From assembly GCA_041641305.1 (NCBI GenBank), contig JBEPYN010000002.1:576001-640000 (forward strand): DNA of 64,000 bases, written 5' to 3'. This DNA comes from Nitrososphaerota archaeon (lineage in GTDB: Archaea; Thermoproteota; Nitrososphaeria_A; Caldarchaeales; Caldarchaeaceae). Below the pieces are notes generated by a model, which searched no databases, was not told the DNA's origin, and was given only the letters and a program-made list of their open reading frames with translations. Position numbers and translations under genes: made by a program. Positions 19,588 through 27,729 of this stretch are shown here, piece by piece. Position 1 is the stretch's first letter. Each line of letters begins with the position of its first letter.

Positions 19588-20166
19588 ATGCAAAACATGG
19601 CGGATATAAATCAGGCTAGAATGATTGGCGGTATAGGCTCTATTCTTCTTGTTCTCGCAATCGTGCCGAGTGTCGGACCTGTTCTCAGCATCGTCGGCTT
19701 CATCTTAGTATTGCTGGCGTTGAAGTATGTGGCTGATGCTGTTCAGCAGCGGGCGATTTTTCAGAACGCTTTATACGCTGTTATCGTCGGGATAATAGGT
19801 GCCATTATCGGTATTGTGCTTGGCGGTGCGACGTTTTTCGCGTTTACAGGGTTTGGCTTAGGTCCAGCAGAGTCACCGGCAGACTTTCTCTCGTTGTTGA
19901 CGGGGATTCTCGTGGCAATCGTTGTTGTGTGGATTTTCGCCGTCATCTCAGCATTCTTTTTCAGAAAATCGCTGTATTTAACGGGGGACAGCCTAGGCAT
20001 AAAACTATTCAGAACAAGCGGCCTCCTGCTGTTTCTCGGAGCCATTCTCACAATAATTCTTGTTGGGTTTATTCTATCACTTGTCGCGTACATTCTGCTG
20101 GCCGTGGCCTTTTTCCAAATTCCTCAGACAGGTGCGCAGCCTCCACCGCCTCCACCACCGCCCTAA
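19588..20166 (+). CDS. DUF996-family membrane protein
   Basis: GGIGSILL, VG.ILVLLA, LF.TSGLL..LGA.L.IILVG, AVAFF, Pro-rich tail. Confidence 0.8.
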   Translation: MQNMADINQARMIGGIGSILLVLAIVPSVGPVLSIVGFILVLLALKYVADAVQQRAIFQNALYAVIVGIIGAIIGIVLGGATFFAFTGFGLGPAESPADFLSLLTGILVAIVVVWIFAVISAFFFRKSLYLTGDSLGIKLFRTSGLLLFLGAILTIILVGFILSLVAYILLAVAFFQIPQTGAQPPPPPPPP

Positions 20167-20900
20167 CCCACTGCGAGATCCTCTAGAGACTTCATAAGTG
20201 AAGAGGCGAACCCTCTATCCTTCACCCAGACAACCACGGGCTCGTCGTCGAGGGGCAGACCTATAATAGCCTCGCCGCCATCAGTAACCAGAATATCCAA
20301 TAGAACAGCCTCGCTGAAATAGACTTTTGCACCGATTTTCTCGAAGAACCAGTAGTCATCTTGATTTGGCTGAACTGAGGGATGCAGTATGAAGGTGAAT
20401 GTTTTGTCCGGAAACCCTGCGACAACTTTCTTAAACTCCTCCTTAAGTTTAGCCGCTTTCTTGACCGCGAAAATGAACTTGTTACCCGTATAGACCATTT
20501 CACTAAGCTTAACCAAAACTGGCTGAAGCCCCTTCAGTATAGAGGCATGCGCCTCGACATCTTCTCGTCTCCGGAGCCTCGAGACAACTGGAACAAGTTG
20601 CTCAATCATCCTCTTTTTCTCCATCATCTGCGACTCCTGACTCGTCCGCTCCCTCTCAAGCCACATGGTGAAGGCGGAGACTGGGTCGGAAACTCCGTAG
20701 CCGTTGCTGGTCTTAGTCAAAAACCCGTTCTCATACAAACTCGATAGAACATCGTAAACACGTGTAATTGGGATTTTTGATCTGCGGGCTATGTCGGCTG
20801 GCCTGCTGTATCCCTTCAATACAGCGACATAGGCCCTCGCCTGATACTTATTGAAGCCGAAAACCTTTTGCAGCGTCTCCGCCAGCTCGTTTTCCTCCAC
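20163..20900 (-). CDS. TrmB-family transcriptional regulator
   Basis: FGFNKYQARAY, IP.TRVYDVLSSL..GF; C-terminal effector domain. Confidence 0.88.
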   Translation of the reverse strand: MEENELAETLQKVFGFNKYQARAYVAVLKGYSRPADIARRSKIPITRVYDVLSSLYENGFLTKTSNGYGVSDPVSAFTMWLERERTSQESQMMEKKRMIEQLVPVVSRLRRREDVEAHASILKGLQPVLVKLSEMVYTGNKFIFAVKKAAKLKEEFKKVVAGFPDKTFTFILHPSVQPNQDDYWFFEKIGAKVYFSEAVLLDILVTDGGEAIIGLPLDDEPVVVWVKDRGFASSLMKSLEDLAVG

Positions 20901-20955: not shown

Positions 20956-21660
20956 ATGCAGAAACGGGAGTATGGACTAGGCCCAGATTGGTGGCCTGTT
21001 ATGAGGTCTTTGGAGAAGCTGGCCCCCGTGTATGATAGGTTGAACAAAACAATTTCTTTCAACACGGATGTGGGGCTTAGGGTTGAGTGTCTCGAGGGCA
21101 ACGTGGGTGTGGTGGATAGGGTGCTTAACGCGGGGTCTGGGCCCGGTGTCTTCACCGAGATTTTGCTCGAGACGCAGAAGTGGCAGGGTGACGCGGTCTT
21201 GCTCGACCCCCTGCCCACCATGCATATGCTTGCCCGAGAGAAGGTGCCTCATAACATATCGCATCAGGTGGCTGGGGTTTTTGAGCGGATGCCCTTTAGA
21301 GAAGATGTGTTCGACACTGTTTTGATGGGTTTCTCGCTGCGAGACGCGTCCAACATGGCCAAAGCTCTTTCCGAGATCCGGAAAATATTGAGAAAAGGTG
21401 GCCGACTGCTCGTCGTTGACCTCGGCAAGCCGGCTAACATTTTGAAAAGATTCGCGATAGGCGTTTACTGGGCTTTGGTGGCCCCTGTCCTGGCCTCGTT
21501 TAAGCTGGGGAAAACAGGGTTAGAGGCCGCCGCAATCTACAGAACCTACCGGCGGCTCCCGACAAATACGGAGCTAAAATCCCTGCTTAAGATGTTCTTC
21601 GAAACAGTTGAGGTTAGGGAGAAAATTCTCGGCGGTGTGGTGGTCGTTAGGGCCGGCTGA
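20956..21660 (+). CDS. UbiE/MenG-family SAM-dependent methyltransferase
   Basis: APVYDRLNKTISF, VLNAGSGPG, MPFR..FD, GFSLR, L.KGGRL. Confidence 0.85.
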   Translation: MQKREYGLGPDWWPVMRSLEKLAPVYDRLNKTISFNTDVGLRVECLEGNVGVVDRVLNAGSGPGVFTEILLETQKWQGDAVLLDPLPTMHMLAREKVPHNISHQVAGVFERMPFREDVFDTVLMGFSLRDASNMAKALSEIRKILRKGGRLLVVDLGKPANILKRFAIGVYWALVAPVLASFKLGKTGLEAAAIYRTYRRLPTNTELKSLLKMFFETVEVREKILGGVVVVRAG

Positions 21661-21698
21661 AAACATTATTAAACCCTCGGGCCCACTTTATCCAGATA

Positions 21699-23162
21699 AT
21701 GGAGAGCACCGACCTGGAGAAATCGCTGTTCCCAACTGGCCATCAGGTATTCGACCGAATAGTTTACTTCAGACACGGTATGACCGTGCTTGTCACCGAC
21801 GAGACCTTCAGCGAAGCAAAAACATTCCTACGCACGCTTCTGAAGAATCATCAACAATCGCTTATAGAGCTTGTGTCAACCCGCTACCCCCAAACAGATC
21901 CCAAACAGGTTCCAGTACCGATAGAGGCGCTGCAAGACCTATCGATAAACGTGAACCAGAAAAGGAGAGCCGAGAAAAACCGGATATTCATTCACAGCTA
22001 TCTCCCAGAGCTGCTCATCCGCCACAACGGCGACGAGGTGCTCAAGCTTTTAGAGATGTGGCAAAAAGACGTCGCCAACTCCGGAAACCTTGAGTTCTAT
22101 CTCCTTCCACGCAACACCTTCGCAGACTTCGAGAGAAAAGCCAAAGCAATCGTCGACGCCGCAATAGAGATTCAGGTCATTAAAGAAAACAACCAGTTCC
22201 TCTACTACTTCACACCCATTAGATCATGCTCACCAGCCCACCACCTGAAAAACATACGATACGAAATCAAAGAAGACCAACTACTAATAGAATGGGAGGG
22301 GGTTATGTTAGAAACATTCACAACGGAACAGCTAACAAGCAAACAAATCAGAGAAAAGATTGAAACACATGAAGACCAGATAATCATAACATTGGGAAAA
22401 TTCGACCCTAAAAACTTCTCGGTAGAAGACTATGTCTTACTAACATCGCTTAACGGGGAACGCCTTTCAGACTTTAAATTACTCTACCCTGACAGATGGG
22501 ATGAGATTCTAGATAAGATAACATTCTGGACTTTAACAGGTGTCATAAAAATGGAGGAAACCCACCCGGTTAAGAGTCACAAGATACGTAACAGGTTAAA
22601 ATTCAAGAGCAAACTACTGTTAAAAGTTCCACCGAGAATTGGCTTAAAACTAGTATCGTTGTTCGAAGGCGTCCTAGGGAAGAGGCTGAGAACAGTTCCT
22701 CTTGATGCTCATTTGGCTGTATTAGATGCTGTTAAGAACATTGTTGACGTGGTTTCCGCAGAAAGGCCTGAACTAAGAAGAGAGGCTCAACTTGCAACAA
22801 GGTATTTTGGAGAATTATCAGCTAGGAGAACGGCATTAGAACATGTTATAAGGCTCGAAGGTACACCCTATACCGTTTTTAACCTCGAAGATGTACCGAG
22901 TTTAATTGCGCTCACATTAAAGATTGGATGGGGATTAGACACAAAATTCATCTCTACAACTAAAGGAAGTTGGCTCTTTGAGATAACTAAATGTCATCTA
23001 TGTGAAGGCATAATAGATAAAGAGCCATTTTGTGACAAATTTGTTTCAAGCGTAGTGGTAGGAGCTCTGTCAGTCTGTTTAAAGAGACGTTTTGAATGCT
23101 TCGAAGTCACCTGTAGGGCCGCAGGGTCCGATAAATGCCGTTTCAAAACATTCACTGTTTGA
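21699..23162 (+). CDS. Degenerate KaiC/RAD55-like ATPase domain fused to a C-terminal V4R ligand-binding domain
   Basis: N-terminal PTG..FD..G.TVLV.DETFSEAKTF (broken Walker A), IHSY (broken IDS), IVDAAIEI, Y.I..D.L; C-terminal CHLC...PFC...EVTCRAAGSDKCRF (V4R). Confidence 0.78.
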   Translation: MESTDLEKSLFPTGHQVFDRIVYFRHGMTVLVTDETFSEAKTFLRTLLKNHQQSLIELVSTRYPQTDPKQVPVPIEALQDLSINVNQKRRAEKNRIFIHSYLPELLIRHNGDEVLKLLEMWQKDVANSGNLEFYLLPRNTFADFERKAKAIVDAAIEIQVIKENNQFLYYFTPIRSCSPAHHLKNIRYEIKEDQLLIEWEGVMLETFTTEQLTSKQIREKIETHEDQIIITLGKFDPKNFSVEDYVLLTSLNGERLSDFKLLYPDRWDEILDKITFWTLTGVIKMEETHPVKSHKIRNRLKFKSKLLLKVPPRIGLKLVSLFEGVLGKRLRTVPLDAHLAVLDAVKNIVDVVSAERPELRREAQLATRYFGELSARRTALEHVIRLEGTPYTVFNLEDVPSLIALTLKIGWGLDTKFISTTKGSWLFEITKCHLCEGIIDKEPFCDKFVSSVVVGALSVCLKRRFECFEVTCRAAGSDKCRFKTFTV

Positions 23163-23179
23163 AGAAAAACTTTACAGCT

Positions 23180-24025
23180 ATGAACCATAATACAATCCGA
23201 AAAATTAAGGGGTTTGTGGCCTTGTCCAAGTCGTATTTCTCCCTCCTAACCTCCACGTTTATGGCCTCAATTACTGTCCTGCTTGTTGCAAATCCTCATC
23301 CCTCACAATTCATTAACATTGTGTTGTTCTTCTTTTTATCGACATTTTTTCTGAACAGCTATAACAACTTAGCGGACATCAATTCGGATATCTTGACTAA
23401 AGAAAATTTTCCTTTGACGAAGGGAGTTATTTCACCTAGGGAAGCTGCGATATTTTCTGCATTAGTTTTTCTAACCGCCACACTCGCGCTAATTCCGTTA
23501 ATGATGCAGAATTTATTGGTATTTTTTGTTCTTTCACTCGACCTACTCCTAGGATATGTATATTCAGTGCCAAAGATTAGGTTGAAAAAGTATCCAATAA
23601 TAAAGGGCTCTGCCCTGATAACGCATACGGTTTTCTTCCCCGTATTGGCCGGCACCTTTTTGACTGGAAAGGATGTTTTCGATTATTGCGCGATAATGGT
23701 TCCCATCTATTTCATGGGGCTAGCTGTTCACACAGTTCAGGATATAGGTGATGTCCGCGGTGACTTGGCAGTGGGCGATAAAACTTTGCCATTGATACTA
23801 GGTCTCAGGAAGTCTGTCTGGTTAGTATTAGCTCTAATAACAATTGCCGCTTTATACTCATGGATACTAGTTGACACCGAATACTTGATCATAATCATGC
23901 CGCTGTTTCTCGTTCAAGGTCTTCTGTTCAGCATACTGCTCCAAAAGCCAAACCTATGGGAAAGGGTTTACAAGGGTTCAGCCCTTATTTCACTTATTGT
24001 ACTAGTCTTGTTTTTAGTTAGATGA
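23180..24025 (+). CDS. UbiA-family membrane prenyltransferase
   Basis: NSYNNLADINSD...PL.KG.IS, YSVP..RLK, QDIGDVRGD...G.KTLP; about 8-9 TM helices. Confidence 0.9.
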   Translation: MNHNTIRKIKGFVALSKSYFSLLTSTFMASITVLLVANPHPSQFINIVLFFFLSTFFLNSYNNLADINSDILTKENFPLTKGVISPREAAIFSALVFLTATLALIPLMMQNLLVFFVLSLDLLLGYVYSVPKIRLKKYPIIKGSALITHTVFFPVLAGTFLTGKDVFDYCAIMVPIYFMGLAVHTVQDIGDVRGDLAVGDKTLPLILGLRKSVWLVLALITIAALYSWILVDTEYLIIIMPLFLVQGLLFSILLQKPNLWERVYKGSALISLIVLVLFLVR

Positions 24026-25178
24026 TGTCTGAATAATGCAAAATCTTATCAGAGCAGCGTGGATACAAGAAGTCAACGAAATTTACTGGGTTCTTCGACT
24101 GGTAAAACCATTTGCGAACAGAAAAGATTCTGAGAACATTCATGCTCGCTATTAGACTGTCCACATCGAAGTCAATACATTTTGAGGCTTTTTTCATAAA
24201 TTTAATCCCTTTCAGATAATAAAGGTCGCCGAGCCTAATCGTCTGACTTTTGATGAAACCATTTTTTAGTGATTCTTTCGCATCTGCCATCAACCCTAAG
24301 TCACGTCCCAGATAGACAACGCTGTTAAGTATACCTAGTTCGATGTCAACCTTTAGGTCTGCGACATCATCATATAGATTGGCTGCTTTCAGTACGTAGT
24401 CGAACCCTTTTCTCAAGTAATCAAACCCCTCAATTTCGCGTGGTGTTCTAATGCATAAGTTCTCTAACATACATAGGTCGAGTCCCACCCAGATTCTTCC
24501 CACGCCTTTCTCATTCATCTCTCTAAGATAGTCGCGGATTGTCAGGTTTTCACGCGCAAGTTGGTTTTGCTGTCTAAATGATGCTTTTTGGCCGGAAAAA
24601 TAGAGGTCAAGGTCTCTTAGAAATTCTATGCTCGACATCGTTGCAGGATTTGGAAGTGATTGGAGCCATTTGTTGACGAGGAGTGCCAGTAATATACATG
24701 AGTTTTCAGCTCGTTTTACGATGTCGTTGTTTCCAGCTGATATGTATATGCCTTCTTCGATGGCTTTTTTCTGTCTATGGAGCGAGTGCTCAGCCTCTTC
24801 GGTTGTGTGAAAGGTGTCGTTGATGTTGTCGAGGACTTTTATGCTGAGAATTAGCGCCATCTTGGCGAGAACTGTTGAGAGAATTTGTGTTCTCGTAGCT
24901 TTTTTGTGAAGAAGCGGGTAGGCTGAGATGGTTGCCATGTATGACGAGTACGGCAAATACTTCTCTTTCATGACGCCGAGGTTCATCATTTCCTCGAGGC
25001 TTGCCGTCTCCTCTCCTCCTAGGATGTTTTCCATGGTTTTGCGGAAGTAGTTGGATGTTTCCCGTATGATGCAAAGCATCTGCGACAGGTTTTTCCTGTT
25101 GCCCGCTATGTATCGTAGCATCAACAGGCCCGCGGCTTTTGTAAAGTGGTCTAACCCCTCCCCCCTATTCTGATTCAT
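24018..25178 (-). CDS. Class I isoprenoid-synthase/terpene-synthase fold protein
   Basis: First Asp-rich motif VLDNIND, SGQ, Y...M.EKG.G, second motif NLYDDVAD..VD..LG.LN; predicted all-helical. Confidence 0.7.
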   Translation of the reverse strand: MNQNRGEGLDHFTKAAGLLMLRYIAGNRKNLSQMLCIIRETSNYFRKTMENILGGEETASLEEMMNLGVMKEKYLPYSSYMATISAYPLLHKKATRTQILSTVLAKMALILSIKVLDNINDTFHTTEEAEHSLHRQKKAIEEGIYISAGNNDIVKRAENSCILLALLVNKWLQSLPNPATMSSIEFLRDLDLYFSGQKASFRQQNQLARENLTIRDYLREMNEKGVGRIWVGLDLCMLENLCIRTPREIEGFDYLRKGFDYVLKAANLYDDVADLKVDIELGILNSVVYLGRDLGLMADAKESLKNGFIKSQTIRLGDLYYLKGIKFMKKASKCIDFDVDSLIASMNVLRIFSVRKWFYQSKNPVNFVDFLYPRCSDKILHYSDII

Positions 25179-25210
25179 GTTAAAATTATTTTGACGCTGG
25201 AAAATAAGGT

Positions 25211-25963
25211 TTAGATAACTTTCTCGGTGGGGTAAACCTCCAAGCCGCCAATCACGAATTTATAGGGATGAGGCTCTACGTCGTGGTCCACTCCCCTCAT
25301 TTTCTCGACTTGAATCGAGCTTGCAACGGTTGCATTCTTAAGATATTTTCTCAGAATTATTACACCGTCCGCCAAATACTCTTCGAACTGATAGGGTCTC
25401 TCGGCTCCGCTGTAACGTAGCTCTGTCAGCAGGAGGGTGGTGCACCTTAACGGCGTTATCCCCTCTAAAAGCTCCAGAAAAGCCGCCCGCCTCTCCGCAA
25501 CCCGTGGATACTGTATGAAGAAGGATGTTAGAGAGTCGATGACAAGTCTTTTCGCGTTGATGTTTCTTACATGGTTTCCGACGGCCGCTATCAAGGCCGC
25601 GAGGGAGAAATCTTTTTTACCGATGGATATGCCGCCGAGCTTTATCTCACCCGGTATCGTTCTAATCGGAGATGCGTCGACTATCGATAATCTGCCTTCT
25701 TTTATAAAAGGCTCAAGGTCTATGCCCAGGTTTGCCACGTTACGGAGAACGCTTTCAGGCCTCTCATCGAGAGTCACGTATATGCCGTTCTCTCCTTTTA
25801 GGCATCCGTGGTACAGGTACTGGAGGCCGAGGGTGGTTTTCCCGGAGCCGGGGGAGCCCATGACCACGATGTTAAACCCGGCGGGAAACCCCTTATTCCC
25901 CAAGAGAACGTCAAGGCCGCTGACGCCCGTGCTTATATACTCCATTCTTTCTCCATCAATCAC
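25211..25963 (-). CDS. KaiC/RAD55-family single-domain ATPase
   Basis: STGVSGLD, GSPGSGKTT, YVTLDE, LVIDS, EYLADGVIIL, EKMRG. Confidence 0.93.
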   Translation of the reverse strand: MIDGERMEYISTGVSGLDVLLGNKGFPAGFNIVVMGSPGSGKTTLGLQYLYHGCLKGENGIYVTLDERPESVLRNVANLGIDLEPFIKEGRLSIVDASPIRTIPGEIKLGGISIGKKDFSLAALIAAVGNHVRNINAKRLVIDSLTSFFIQYPRVAERRAAFLELLEGITPLRCTTLLLTELRYSGAERPYQFEEYLADGVIILRKYLKNATVASSIQVEKMRGVDHDVEPHPYKFVIGGLEVYPTEKVI

Positions 25964-26031
25964 GCATAAATTGAATGTAAGAATGATATAAAATTTTGAA
26001 GAACTCTTTTTACCGGCAGTAGGGAGGTTCC

Positions 26032-26856
26032 TTGGGTTTGCGGAGGTACTTGGTGGCCGTTTTACCGGTTTTGACGACTTTGGTTTTTGCTATGGTTTTT
26101 CAGTCGCTGTTGAGTGGTGTGATGTTGCCTCAGCCTCCGCTGGCGCCGTTGCAGGAAGAGGATGAGGATGTGGCTGTTCTAGGGTCTCCCACACCCTATC
26201 TAAACAGCCTGATTGTGATAGCGGTTATTTTTTTGGGCAGCCTCGCTATGCTCTGGCTTATACGATACCGCAGAGCCCTCGCAGTCATCGTGTCGGTGGT
26301 GCTTTTCGCCACCGCGGCTTCTGTCACTTTCCTTTTCCTGTTTATTTCGACCAGTCTGGGAGAGGATGTGTTGTTGGGTGTCTCGGTGATGGTGGGCGGG
26401 CTGGTTTTGGCGGGAGTGTTTTCGAGGCGTGAAGTGTTTAACGTGTTGGCTGCGGCTTATGTGGCTTCAGCGAGCGGCGTGATTTTCGGAATTTCCCTGC
26501 CTTTCTGGACATCGCTTGTCCTGCTTGGAGCAGTTGCGGTTTACGACGTGGTCGCGGTTTTCAGGGGCCATTTGAAGAGGCTGGGAAACATGGATATGGG
26601 GGAGCTGAGAGGACTGGTTGTTACTGTCGAGGGCCTCAGCATAGGGTTGGGCGACCTCTTCTTCTACTCCGTTGCCCAGAGCTTCGCGGCAAGCAACCTC
26701 GGTTGGATGTCGGGGATGGCAGCCTCCGCAGGCCTCATAGCCGGATACCTCTTAACCATCAAGCTTGCGGAAACGAGGCCTGTCTTTCCCGGGCTGCCGC
26801 TCACTCTGCTGGTTGCGATGGTCTGCGCTTTTCTCATCACTCTCATACCACTGTGA
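26032..26856 (+). CDS. Presenilin/SPP-family (GxGD) intramembrane aspartyl protease
   Basis: AVYDVVAVF, IGLGDLFFYS, PGLP (PAL-motif variant); about 9 TM. Confidence 0.85.
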   Translation: MGLRRYLVAVLPVLTTLVFAMVFQSLLSGVMLPQPPLAPLQEEDEDVAVLGSPTPYLNSLIVIAVIFLGSLAMLWLIRYRRALAVIVSVVLFATAASVTFLFLFISTSLGEDVLLGVSVMVGGLVLAGVFSRREVFNVLAAAYVASASGVIFGISLPFWTSLVLLGAVAVYDVVAVFRGHLKRLGNMDMGELRGLVVTVEGLSIGLGDLFFYSVAQSFAASNLGWMSGMAASAGLIAGYLLTIKLAETRPVFPGLPLTLLVAMVCAFLITLIPL

Positions 26857-26859
26857 AAG

Positions 26860-27729
26860 ATGATGACACCTGAGGAGGTTGCGAGATGCTGCACACTCGG
26901 CCTCTTGCTTGAGCTCGCGACATCGCCAAAACCCGGGCTGGTTGACAGGCTGTCCAATCCCGCTGCCTATGCACAGTTCACCGCCTCTGCCGTCGCGCTG
27001 TATAGATCTTTTTTGAATGCAGGTAAAGGCATGACCGTTGGCGAGGCCGTTCTACATTCATCCCGTGAGATGCTGAGCTGGCAGAAAGGAGGGAACACAC
27101 ATCTCGGCGCCATCCTACTTTTAACACCCATCGCAAAAGCAGCCGTCGCTGCACAAAAATTCGGGAATCTACGCCGCAGCTTATCGAAAACACTCAAGGA
27201 AATGGATCACAGAGACTTGCACAAGATCTTGACCGCCATAAAGCTGGTGCAGCCTGGTGCGCTGGGAAAGGTAGCATACCTTGACGTTAACAACGTGAAA
27301 ACATACGAATTGGTGAAGCGTCGCAAGACCTCTGTCACCGAAGCGTTTAAACCCTACACACGTGTTGAAGTCGTAGCTCATGAATACTGCACAAACTACC
27401 AAGCCAGCATAATGTATGGCTACCGGTATCTAAAAAAAAGAATAGACCACGAGGACTGGAACACGGCGGGGCTAAACACGTTCCTAAACATTTTACAGAA
27501 TCTCCCGGATAGCCACGTGTCACGCAGGCAGGGTAGACACGCCGCCAGAATTCTCTCCAGAATGGCTAAACAGGTTCTCGATGCTGGGGGAGTGGGCACT
27601 GCTGAAGGCGGCCGCAGATACACTCAGCTAATCAAAATCGTTAAGAGAGCGGGAATGAAGCCCGCTGCGGCCGCAGACATATTGGCCGTAGCCTACACCC
27701 TGCTTCTGCTAAACGGCTGGAGACCATGA
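26860..27729 (+). CDS. citG: CitG-family triphosphoribosyl-dephospho-CoA synthase-like protein
   Basis: LE...PKPGLVDR, GGNTHLGAILL, PDSHV.R..G, P.A.AD. Confidence 0.85.
   Translation: MMTPEEVARCCTLGLLLELATSPKPGLVDRLSNPAAYAQFTASAVALYRSFLNAGKGMTVGEAVLHSSREMLSWQKGGNTHLGAILLLTPIAKAAVAAQKFGNLRRSLSKTLKEMDHRDLHKILTAIKLVQPGALGKVAYLDVNNVKTYELVKRRKTSVTEAFKPYTRVEVVAHEYCTNYQASIMYGYRYLKKRIDHEDWNTAGLNTFLNILQNLPDSHVSRRQGRHAARILSRMAKQVLDAGGVGTAEGGRRYTQLIKIVKRAGMKPAAAADILAVAYTLLLLNGWRP

Follow-up and report, generated by a model that had tools for sequence, protein, structure and literature searches.

Does the meeting of isoprenoid-type enzymes and KaiC-type proteins in one archaeal locus represent a system that both makes a hydrophobic compound and senses it? 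The window analyzed here (the whole stretch of 64,000 nucleotides) comes from the 99%-complete genome of a Nitrososphaerota archaeon, a Caldarchaeum from a hot spring. According to the coordinates of the open reading frames, five genes are located in 20956-25963 and form two convergent units. As proposed in the first-pass annotation, the last genes of these units overlap: the genes for UbiA and for a 386-aa protein share 8 bases at their 3' ends (24018-24025). The features of the locus are as follows.

20956..21660, plus strand: UbiE/MenG-like SAM methyltransferase, 234 aa (PF01209 match)
21699..23162, plus strand: dead-KaiC / middle domain / V4R protein, 487 aa (AF2 model, Foldseek, and V4R match)
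23135..24025, plus strand: divergent UbiA-family membrane prenyltransferase, 296 aa from 23135 (PF01040 match)
24018..25178, minus strand: class I terpenoid-synthase-fold enzyme without a family name, 386 aa (AF2 model, motifs)
25211..25963, minus strand: single-domain KaiC-family ATPase, 250 aa, first gene of the minus-strand unit (PF06745 match)
22250..24650, no strand: recombined low-GC allelic tract (nucleotide identity to the relatives L043 and L007, GC)
25964..26031, no strand: divergent intergenic region between the KaiC gene and a presenilin/SPP-like gene (read from sequence)

For UbiA, the ATG at 23180 (281 aa), located past the stop of the upstream gene, is the more likely start; UbiA lengths in the relatives are 276-285 aa. 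The divergent intergenic region contains an A/T-rich TATA-like palindrome, AAAATTTTATAT, on the minus strand, and a promoter role is predicted for this region.

The reading preferred here, with roughly even chances of being correct, is that the locus is an accessory isoprenoid "make-and-sense" module of TACK archaea, whose core is the 386-aa enzyme encoded beside a dead-KaiC/V4R ligand sensor.

Enzymes of the locus and housekeeping pathways

No match to the 386-aa enzyme was found by Pfam, NCBIfam, or PDB sequence searches. Its AF2 model (pLDDT 91.4) aligns with structures of class I terpene synthases and of prenyl diphosphate synthases at Z of 20-22 over 270-311 residues, and the initial description of this protein as a class I isoprenoid synthase is thus confirmed for the fold. 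Two motifs are invariant in the enzyme, K114-x2-D117-N118-x2-D121 (DNxxD) and Y269-D270-D271-x2-D274-L275-x2-D278 (DDxxDxxxD). Both of these metal motifs are kept throughout the wider family, and in the model each lies at the end of a long helix (residues 96-123 and 246-273). Because DNxxD replaces DDxxD in the first metal motif, the enzyme is considered only putatively catalytic. Weak matches to the Pfam family Terpene_syn_C_2 were found in 6 of the 33 family members (best E 4e-4). By language-model features, the class IB family PF10776 is the sole named family near the enzyme (0.90); neither PF10776 nor PF00348 was matched even at E 10. In the preferred explanation, the enzyme would be soluble and Mg2+-dependent and would belong to a non-canonical family whose motifs resemble class IB.

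The other three identities given by the first-pass annotation, for the active KaiC, UbiA, and the methyltransferase, are supported by Pfam. The KaiC ATPase matches PF06745 (191 bits, E 2e-56), carries an intact Walker A (GSPGSGKT), and is 100% identical in the near-identical relative L043. UbiA matches PF01040 (93 bits), and its Asp-rich motifs NNLxDxxxD and QDIGDxxGD are present in all alleles. The best NCBIfam matches of UbiA are PRK12884 (66 bits, cut-off 269) and DGGGPS (64 bits, cut-off 296); it reaches at most 66 bits against models with cut-offs of 200-350 bits. The methyltransferase matches Ubie_methyltran (PF01209, 64 bits); its best NCBIfam match is NF004452 (117 bits, cut-off 207), and no MenG/UbiE equivalog cut-off of NCBIfam is reached.

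The trio of a methyltransferase, UbiA, and a prenyl-synthase-fold protein resembles the final steps of quinone synthesis. The cluster might therefore be a housekeeping branch for quinones or core lipids, consisting of a polyprenyl-chain enzyme, a MenA- or DGGGPS-like transferase, and a UbiE/MenG methyltransferase. The DDxxD of the second enzyme motif and the structural matches to trans-prenyl diphosphate synthases (Z about 20) agree with this possibility, which is nevertheless highly improbable. The enzyme was found in just 26 of the 400 sampled genomes, and 5 of the 10 congeners in the sample gave no hit; equivalog cut-offs are not reached, PF00348 is not matched, and the methyltransferase is unlinked to the cluster outside Caldarchaeales. 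Moreover, a DGGGP-synthase-like UbiA, a MenA-like UbiA, two heme O synthases, and two canonical polyprenyl synthases are encoded elsewhere in the genome. Membership in housekeeping clades was one of the checks set in advance by the first-pass annotation; with these separate enzymes and the low UbiA scores, the cluster enzymes fall outside such clades.

The methyltransferase had also been counted as a part of the cassette, and this assignment is not supported. Its gene adjoins the cluster in Caldarchaeum-type loci and is five genes away in locus L006; in other classes, the clusters do not include it. It sits in the constant flank and is retained by genomes without the enzymes. The methyltransferase is a syntenic neighbor and probably not a core component.

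The dead-KaiC/V4R protein and its genomic partners

The AF2 model of the 487-aa protein (pLDDT 83) contains a KaiC fold (residues ~1-205), a middle alpha/beta domain (~205-330), and a helical linker with a Cys-rich V4R domain (~335-487). The first domain was matched by Foldseek to KaiC CI, PH0284, PH0186, and FlaH (E about 1e-7, TM 0.63-0.68); for the single-domain KaiC proteins, matched over the N-terminal ~200 residues, TM is 0.65-0.68. It has no Walker A; that position reads DETFSE. The V4R match, at residues 427-483, scores 24.9 bits, under the Pfam cut-off of 31; in the family, V4R is matched by all 29 of the 29 members (best E 5.7e-12). The modeling thus bears out the earlier proposal of a pseudo-KaiC joined to V4R. 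Invariant positions in the sensor-family alignment are D34, E39, H99, C432, C435, C445, E469, C472, and C480. No sigma-54 or HTH module was detected in this protein. A paralogue of this protein in the same genome is located between two NuoL/Mrp-like genes, so the architecture is general and not isoprenoid-specific.

Co-occurrence was analyzed in one sample of 400 genomes from the phylum. Of these, 25 carry the enzyme together with the dead-KaiC/V4R sensor family, 1 the enzyme only, 4 the sensor only, and 370 neither; that is, 25 of the 26 enzyme-bearing genomes also carry the sensor. In the neighborhood survey suggested by the first-pass annotation, 26 of the 31 species-representative loci, drawn from three archaeal classes, have the two genes side by side. 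This adjacency was seen in Caldarchaeales, Methanomethylicia, and Bathyarchaeia, as well as in genus g5, which belongs to the same taxonomic order as the present archaeon. No adjacent sensor was found beside the enzyme in three Bathyarchaeia loci (L021, L023, and L031) or in L005, a locus outside the survey. The cluster is rare and conserved, with a patchy spread.

Other partners of the cluster (KaiC, UbiA, GGR, and HAD) depend on the lineage. The recurring ones all come from isoprenoid-lipid families: UbiA, GGR, and HAD phosphatase or pyrophosphatase. KaiC is absent from the GGR-type clusters of Bathyarchaeia and from genus g5. Of the initially proposed co-conservation of four genes, the link between the enzyme and the dead-KaiC/V4R protein stands; UbiA and KaiC accompany them in particular lineages and are not universal partners.

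In the make-and-sense reading, a prenyl diphosphate would be ionized or transferred by the class I-fold enzyme. In Caldarchaeum, the dedicated UbiA prenyltransferase would continue the chemistry within the membrane, a step for which other lineages would instead use a GGR-type reductase and/or an HAD phosphatase. The hydrophobic product or a precursor would be bound by the V4R domain, taken to be of the Zn/Cys type, and the dead-KaiC domain might relay the ligand state by contact with the neighboring active KaiC ATPase. The compound may act within the cell or between cells.

The tight adjacency of the enzyme and the V4R protein across classes would also be expected of a carrier or scaffold. BchJ is a proposed carrier or scaffold for hydrophobic substrates. 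By analogy, the V4R protein may hand an isoprenoid or tetrapyrrole-like substrate to the enzyme and UbiA or GGR, with KaiC as an ATP-driven assembly factor. UbiA, GGR, and V4R would then parallel BchG/ChlG, BchP/ChlP, and BchJ; UbiA has weak ChlG/BchG matches (54-56 bits), and the cluster GGR belongs to the GG-reductase superfamily. A functional BchG-like gene on an MCG (Bathyarchaeia) fosmid has been reported in work cited in PMC3930316. This role is quite unlikely: genomes from which both enzymes have been lost still carry a well-conserved V4R protein and KaiC, the sensor paralogue has an unrelated context, and a dead-KaiC domain beside an active KaiC resembles a signaling pair.

The allelic tract and joint loss of the enzymes

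When aligned with L043, the flanks show nucleotide identities of 98-100%, and 22250-24650 shows 49-70%; a three-way comparison with L007 gives the same tract boundaries. The tract includes the C-terminal part of the sensor, starting at residue ~185-200, the whole UbiA, and the C-terminal part of the enzyme, starting at residue ~176. Its GC is 0.39-0.42, vs. about 0.51 for the window. At least three alleles of the tract were found, with breakpoints inside the enzyme and sensor genes, and the trees of the sensor N-domain and of the rest of the sensor disagree. Because in the Caldarchaeum subterraneum clade the C-terminal half of the enzyme, UbiA, and the ligand half of the sensor are swapped between strains as one block, in the manner of the "pherotype" loci of quorum sensing, the sequences suggest that the specificities of product and receptor are matched.

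In four congeners, the sensor is kept and the enzyme gene is absent. UbiA and the enzyme are missing jointly at the same site, with KaiC and the sensor retained, in all three sensor-only loci examined. The sensor and KaiC are well conserved in genomes without the enzymes, and the sensor thus needs no product made in cis. Both the allelic block and the sensor-only congeners fit a matched producer-and-receptor unit.

Sensor-only genomes also agree with another reading, in which KaiC and the dead-KaiC/V4R protein respond to an unrelated cue; examples are the state of the membrane, temperature, a quinone, and a hydrophobic compound from the environment. The enzymes would then produce a structural membrane lipid, not the ligand, and the sensor pair would merely regulate a nearby accessory lipid-modification pathway. 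The paralogous sensor adjoins NuoL/Mrp-like membrane genes, and the partners, a DGGGPS-like UbiA and a DGGGPL-reductase-like GGR, belong to typical membrane-lipid families. The module genes of Methanomethylicia and Bathyarchaeia diverge evenly, as do their housekeeping neighbors. Such a role is unlikely; it leaves unexplained why the ligand half of the sensor is exchanged with UbiA and the enzyme C-terminal half while the KaiC-facing half is constant, and why the enzyme is almost never found without this sensor family.

The make-and-sense reading is thus supported in part: co-conservation, the non-housekeeping character of the enzymes, the allelic block, and the sensor-only congeners are in favor; the non-core methyltransferase, the non-universal UbiA and KaiC, and the even divergence elsewhere are against its original form. 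The pherotype-like pattern may be a feature of the Caldarchaeum subterraneum clade only.

Comparison with known systems

Like the class IB "large-terpene" synthases (BalTS, BsuTS/YtpB; PF10776; 5yo8, 6loo), the enzyme has a single alpha-domain class I fold. The alignment with the class IB beta-prene synthase 5yo8 (Z 21.4, 311 residues) is the longest among the structural matches listed. The LDNIxD of the enzyme resembles the class IB DYLDNLxD, and its D-x3-D-x3-D resembles DY(F,L,W)IDxxED. Unlike class IB, the enzyme has Lys for the first Asp of motif 1, is archaeal, not bacterial, and is paired with a dead-KaiC/V4R gene. The best structural matches are bacterial class I terpene synthases, tolypothrichol synthase (9kgb, Z 22.2) and Sat1646 (7e4n/7e4o, Z 21.5), with a Foldseek E of 2.5e-5 for the canonical bacterial enzymes. 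Sequence identity to canonical terpene synthases is 8-14%, and the enzyme has DNxxD for DDxxD and DDxxDxxxD for NSE/DTE. Archaeal terpene synthases were recently reported; the only one with motifs described in that preprint, A0A5E4I9B1, differs from the enzyme in having the canonical DDXXD and an NSE-like motif (bioRxiv 10.1101/2024.01.29.577750).

In the ComQXPA quorum-sensing locus of Bacillus subtilis (PMC4008528), an isoprenoid-fold enzyme gene is likewise located beside a receptor gene, the receptor here being putative. In both systems, close strains are highly polymorphic, above all in the enzyme and the ligand-binding part of the receptor, with conserved signaling part and flanks. However, there is no homology to ComP or ComA, the intergenic gaps (at most 38 nt) leave no room for a ComX-like peptide gene, and the candidate receptor is a cytoplasmic dead-KaiC/V4R protein, not a membrane histidine kinase. 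Additionally, the polymorphism was seen in just one clade, and the candidate module has no known secreted signal.

The V4R effector sensors of bacterial enhancer-binding proteins (DmpR, XylR, MopR, and PoxR) share the conserved Cys/Glu cluster and the fusion to a P-loop-type oligomerizing domain. DmpR has a Cys3Glu zinc site, and C445, E469, C472, and C480 resemble its C151, E172, C177, and C185, the last two Cys being 8 residues apart in both (PMC7264223). Unlike in DmpR-type sensors, the domain joined to V4R has a dead KaiC/RecA-type fold in place of an active AAA+, a sigma-54 or HTH module was not detected, and an additional invariant CxxC (C432, C435) is present. The arrangement of an active single-domain KaiC beside a dead-KaiC/sensor-type fusion is like that of the archaeal KaiC-like ATPases and inactivated KaiC domains described by Makarova, Galperin and Koonin (2017), as cited in PMC5847659.

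Gene content of the locus

The five ORFs read at positions 20956-25963 of the window form two convergent units with overlapping 3' ends, as described in the first-pass annotation, and the terminal genes of these units, encoding UbiA and the 386-aa enzyme, overlap by 8 bases. A/T-rich TATA-like boxes are present in both upstream intergenic regions. The host genome (1.66 Mb, 4 contigs) is 99.3% complete, and its close relatives carry the label Candidatus Caldarchaeum.

Genes of the locus and the adjacent regulator
20163-20900, minus strand: TrmB-family regulator, divergent from the methyltransferase
20956-21660, plus strand: UbiE/MenG-like methyltransferase (Pfam match)
21699-23162, plus strand: dead-KaiC/V4R protein of 487 aa, herein referred to as the sensor (Pfam match to V4R at the C-terminus)
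23135-24025 (longest ORF), plus strand: UbiA prenyltransferase (Pfam, 93 bits)
24018-25178, minus strand: predicted class I-fold enzyme of 386 aa (without Pfam match)
25211-25963, minus strand: predicted KaiC ATPase (Pfam, 191 bits; Walker A intact)

Read as its longest ORF, UbiA would begin at 23135 and share 28 nt with the gene before it. Judging from the sequence, the likelier start is an alternative ATG at 23180, located 17 nt past the stop codon of the upstream gene; the resulting protein of 281 aa fits the length of the UbiA relatives (276-285 aa). The methyltransferase, previously counted as a member of the plus-strand unit, does head this unit here but is separated from the cluster in a related locus (L006), where it lies five genes off and still beside TrmB; the clusters of other classes lack it. 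Because the pairing with TrmB persists in L006, the methyltransferase may belong with this regulator and not with the isoprenoid genes. KaiC is flanked by genes for a presenilin/signal-peptide-peptidase-like membrane protease and a CitG-like triphosphoribosyl-dephospho-CoA synthase (26032-27729), whose synteny is kept throughout the Caldarchaeum loci, also where UbiA and the 386-aa enzyme are missing. A role in anti-phage defence was considered and rejected, as PADLOC returned nothing beyond weak and generic hits to P-loop proteins and methyltransferases.

The product of the KaiC gene belongs by sequence to the KaiC family (PF06745, 191 bits), and its Walker A (GSPGSGKT) and Walker B (RLVIDS) motifs predict ATPase activity. 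The prenyltransferase belongs to the UbiA superfamily (PF01040, 93.4 bits; cut-off 34.2), and its Asp-rich motifs, NNLxDxxxD and QDIGDxxGD, are kept in all alleles of the locus. It misses every NCBIfam equivalog cut-off for DGGGP synthase, MenA, and ChlG; its best scores are 66.5, 64.5, and 56 bits (cut-offs 269, 296, and 313, respectively), with 24.6 bits for MenA (cut-off 264). It lies nearest the DGGGPS/ChlG group, though far under any cut-off. Six UbiA genes were found in the genome: two for heme O synthases, one DGGGPS-like (255 bits), one MenA-like, one PRK12875, and the cluster copy. Clustering with housekeeping clades, which would have spoken against the proposed cassette, was not observed for this copy. 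A housekeeping pathway is the weakest of the alternative explanations for the cluster; the DGGGPS-like and MenA-like genes, together with two canonical polyprenyl synthases, are present elsewhere in the genome.

Family and fold of the 386-aa enzyme

No match to the 386-aa enzyme was found in Pfam, NCBIfam, or PDB sequences by single-protein search, and a search of the PDB sequences with the family profile gave nothing meaningful. A word-based comparison against 5.8 billion proteins found 41 relatives. When the family profile was run exhaustively against 1.84 billion representative proteins, 68 members were recovered, all of this one family, and none of the representatives linked it to a named family. 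By these searches, the family is small, separate, and sharply bounded. Its members were found in Caldarchaeum, other Nitrososphaerota, Methanomethylicia, and Bathyarchaeia.

The AlphaFold (AF2) model of the enzyme (pLDDT 91.4, pTM 0.90) has the all-alpha class I (alpha-domain) fold, which bears out the earlier assignment of this protein to the class I isoprenoid synthases at the level of fold. The model was most similar to tolypothrichol synthase (9kgb; VIA Z 22.2, rmsd 3.6, 297 residues aligned), followed by a pimarane-type diterpene synthase (Z 21.5), the class IB beta-C25/C30/C35-prene synthase (Z 21.4, 311 residues aligned), and many trans-prenyl diphosphate synthases (Z ~20). In total, 115 chains had Z >= 8, mostly terpene and prenyl synthases. 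Terpene synthases also filled the whole top 50 in Foldseek, and the best named match in the ESM Atlas shape search was a terpene synthase cluster (TM 0.66/0.70).

Two motifs are invariant in the enzyme alignment, K114-xx-D117-N118-xx-D121 and Y269-D270-D271-xx-D274-L275-xx-D278, as are the residues E158-N159, G196-Q197, K224, and R350/R355/K356. The cores of both motifs, DNxxD and DDxxDxxxD, are kept in nearly all more distant full-length members, with one exception (P0105). The canonical DDxx(D/E) of helix D and NSE/DTE of helix H were not found in the enzyme; DNxxD (117-121) and DDxxDxxxD (270-278) are present instead. In the model, each motif sits at the C-terminal end of a long helix (residues 96-123 and 246-273, respectively), where Mg2+ and diphosphate are bound in class I enzymes. 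By helix position, the modeled motifs fit helices D and H and would be equivalent to their metal sites.

Class IB enzymes are marked by two sequence signatures (PMC5939612), DYLDNLxD and DY(F,L,W)IDxxED, which the enzyme motifs resemble in part: the first, K-V-L-D-N-I-x-D, has the LDN[IL]xD core but a Lys at the first Asp, and the second, Y-D-D-x-x-D-L-x-x-D, has the D-x3-D-x3-D spacing. Class IB was also the sole named family near the enzyme in language-model features (0.90). No match to PF10776/DUF2600 was found in 33 enzyme-family members at E up to 10; weak matches to Terpene_syn_C_2 were found in 6 of the 33. The trans-isoprenyl diphosphate synthases are compatible with the enzyme in its second motif, DDxxD, and in structure; however, no family member matched PF00348 at E up to 10, and the FARM motif (DDx2-4D followed by RRG) is absent, the first motif being DNxxD with no RRG after it. 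Having the class I fold and IB-like motifs without a PF10776 match, the enzyme was classified as a non-canonical protein of the class I fold superfamily; in style it comes nearest to class IB, but it was set outside class IB, the canonical terpene synthases, and the trans-prenyl diphosphate synthases. With this family, the class I terpenoid synthases would gain a non-canonical class. Reports of archaeal terpene synthases are very recent, and the motifs described for one of them, the archaeal protein A0A5E4I9B1, are canonical (bioRxiv 10.1101/2024.01.29.577750).

The sensor and its association with the enzyme

The AF2 model of the sensor (pLDDT 83) has a KaiC/RecA fold in residues 1-~205, with Foldseek matches to PH0284, PH0186, KaiC-CI, and FlaH (2dr3, 2zts, and 4tlc among the entries; TM 0.65-0.68, E ~1e-7). 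Profile-profile comparison of this N-domain with the neighbouring KaiC detected no sequence similarity, and its KaiC assignment is based solely on predicted structure. Walker A (GxxxxGK[TS]) is absent from the N-domain, the corresponding stretch being V-T-D-E-T-F-S-E; across the sensor family, V-x-D-E-T-F-S-E with invariant D34 and E39 is found where KaiC has GxxGxGKT. An invariant His, H99, seems to stand at the position of the Walker B Asp; both equivalences were read off the sequence. The modeled fold and the loss of Walker A agree with the pseudo-KaiC reading of the first-pass annotation. The V4R domain that it had placed in this protein was likewise recovered at residues ~335-487: PF02830 was matched by all 29 sensor-family members (best E 5.7e-12), although this sensor itself scores 24.9 bits, under the Pfam cut-off of 31. 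The invariant residues of the V4R part are C432, C435, C445, E469, C472, and C480, and four of them (C445, E469, C472, and C480) are reminiscent of the Cys3Glu zinc site described in DmpR (PMC7264223).

The middle domain (~205-330) is the least conserved part of the sensor. A winged-helix reading of this domain, drawn from secondary structure, was not supported by the family Pfam scan, the PDB profile search, or the Atlas feature search, and DNA binding by the sensor is not claimed. Complex prediction for the enzyme and sensor, run without controls, gave a score of 0.00, which speaks neither for nor against binding.

The gene neighbourhoods were surveyed in 31 species-representative loci, this window, and further metagenomic loci. 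All Caldarchaeum-type loci have KaiC and the enzyme followed by converging UbiA, sensor, and methyltransferase genes. The layout in Methanomethylicia is enzyme, phosphatase/pyrophosphatase-type gene (HAD), sensor, and KaiC. Two layouts were found in Bathyarchaeia: enzyme, geranylgeranyl-reductase-type gene (GGR), sensor, and HAD, or KaiC, enzyme, sensor, and UbiA. In another genus of the host's order, the genes run HAD, sensor, and enzyme; there, the enzyme and sensor pair adjoins a Vps4/CdvC-type AAA ATPase with an MIT domain (L045:9446-10567). Of the 31 species loci, 26 have sensor and enzyme side by side, and two of the five exceptions stop at a contig edge. Every recurring partner comes from an isoprenoid-lipid family: UbiA, the geranylgeranyl-reductase family, or a PpaX/phosphoglycolate-phosphatase-like HAD. 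In many Bathyarchaeia, a geranylgeranyl-reductase gene (440-465 aa) lies between enzyme and sensor, in the place of UbiA in Caldarchaeum.

Geranylgeranyl-reductase family genes in Bathyarchaeia
L002:9253-10650
L004:9353-10675
Other Bathyarchaeia loci

In a phylum sample of 400 genomes, the enzyme was found in 26 and the sensor in 29. Both were present in 25 genomes, the sensor alone in 4, and the enzyme alone in only one, an assembly of 320 contigs that is 86% complete. Related genomes in the sample are not independent, but enzyme and sensor co-occur in no fewer than six families. Of the four-gene co-conservation expected for the cassette, the enzyme and sensor part was confirmed, whereas UbiA and KaiC vary by lineage. 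The best-supported reading is an accessory isoprenoid module, in which the enzyme would be linked in function to a V4R sensor of its own that signals through KaiC. Alternatively, the V4R protein may have a carrier or scaffold role. KaiC-like ATPases and V4R domains occur in large numbers in archaea, and to our knowledge almost none has a known input; a specific enzyme pair genetically tied to one KaiC/V4R sensor makes the input of the module directly testable.

The sensor-only genomes represent two separate lineages. At the same site in three congeners (G081, G144, and G206), the gene order is RpiA, DUF996, TrmB, methyltransferase, sensor, converging KaiC, SPP, and CitG, and both UbiA and the enzyme are missing; their joint absence indicates that the two enzymes were gained or lost as a unit. 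A fourth genome (G308) has a similar sensor and KaiC and no enzyme match. Since the sensor and KaiC are still well conserved in these lineages, the pair appears to work without UbiA and the enzyme. Such genomes are compatible with "listener" strains as well as with a sensor responding to a cue other than the local product, and the latter fit counts in favor of the rival explanation that the sensor reads a cue unrelated to the neighbouring enzymes.

A sensor paralogue was found elsewhere in the host genome, between two genes for NuoL/Mrp-antiporter-like membrane subunits, and a similar second copy is present in most congeners. These copies suggest, at the sequence level, that the dead-KaiC/V4R architecture is a general archaeal sensor type.

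Paralogue of the sensor
Contig C1, ~462.4-463.7 kb (L053:6360-7709), minus strand: dead-KaiC/V4R protein of 449 aa

An allelic block spanning enzyme and sensor

The GC content drops from ~0.51 to 0.39-0.42 roughly at 22100-24500. In a fully syntenic locus of a close relative (L043), the flanks are 98-100% identical to the window, whereas nucleotide identity across 22250-24650 is only 49-70%. KaiC (100%), residues 1-175 of the enzyme, and residues 1-184 of the sensor (98-99%) are constant between the two loci; inside the tract, identity falls to 59% for the C-half of the enzyme, 47% for UbiA, and 65% for the C-part of the sensor. Another relative (L007) has flanks ~85% identical, and its tract, with the same boundaries, is equidistant from those of the window and L043; its allele is shared with the complete genome G018. 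At least three alleles with shared boundaries exist, and the allele trees disagree with the backbone trees. Among the sensor-family proteins, identity over the dead-KaiC domain is 96% for P0047 and P0048, against 59% over the middle domain; for P0046 and P0048, the values are 90 and 81%. Identity of 100% beside 55% has recombination as its only possible source. All three alleles are GC-poor in the tract, unlike the more distant species. Membrane-protein codon bias was ruled out as the cause, because the soluble sensor and enzyme halves dip too and the same genes in three other loci (L008, L009, and L013) show no dip.

The breakpoints leave constant the KaiC-facing dead-KaiC domain and the predicted first metal motif of the enzyme and exchange the middle and V4R domains of the sensor, UbiA, and the enzyme half with the second motif. 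Thus, closely related strains with conserved flanks carry a polymorphic block covering both the enzyme and the ligand part of the putative receptor, as expected for pherotypes, i.e., ComQXPA-like matched producer-receptor alleles. This pattern was not seen in Methanomethylicia or Bathyarchaeia. By analogy, the allelic block favours matched specificity of producer and receptor. The terpene-synthase-fold enzyme and UbiA would then make an isoprenoid-derived small molecule serving as a strain-specific signal between Caldarchaeum cells; the V4R domain of the dead-KaiC protein would receive it and drive the KaiC ATPase switch; and the specificities of producer and receiver would be swapped together as alleles, sensor-only strains being listeners. 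We consider this between-cell reading, taken as a whole, unlikely. If true, it would represent an archaeal quorum-sensing chemistry and a receptor type without a described counterpart. The allelic block and the sensor-only genomes constitute a natural experiment, and matched and mismatched producer-sensor pairs are already present in nearly identical genomic backgrounds.

The families UbiA, GGR, and V4R echo BchG, BchP, and BchJ, respectively, and a functional BchG-like gene has been reported on a fosmid of MCG (Bathyarchaeia), as cited in PMC3930316. The allelic tract shows the same pattern as the ComQXP pherotype loci (PMC4008528), a likeness that is functional and carries no claim of homology.
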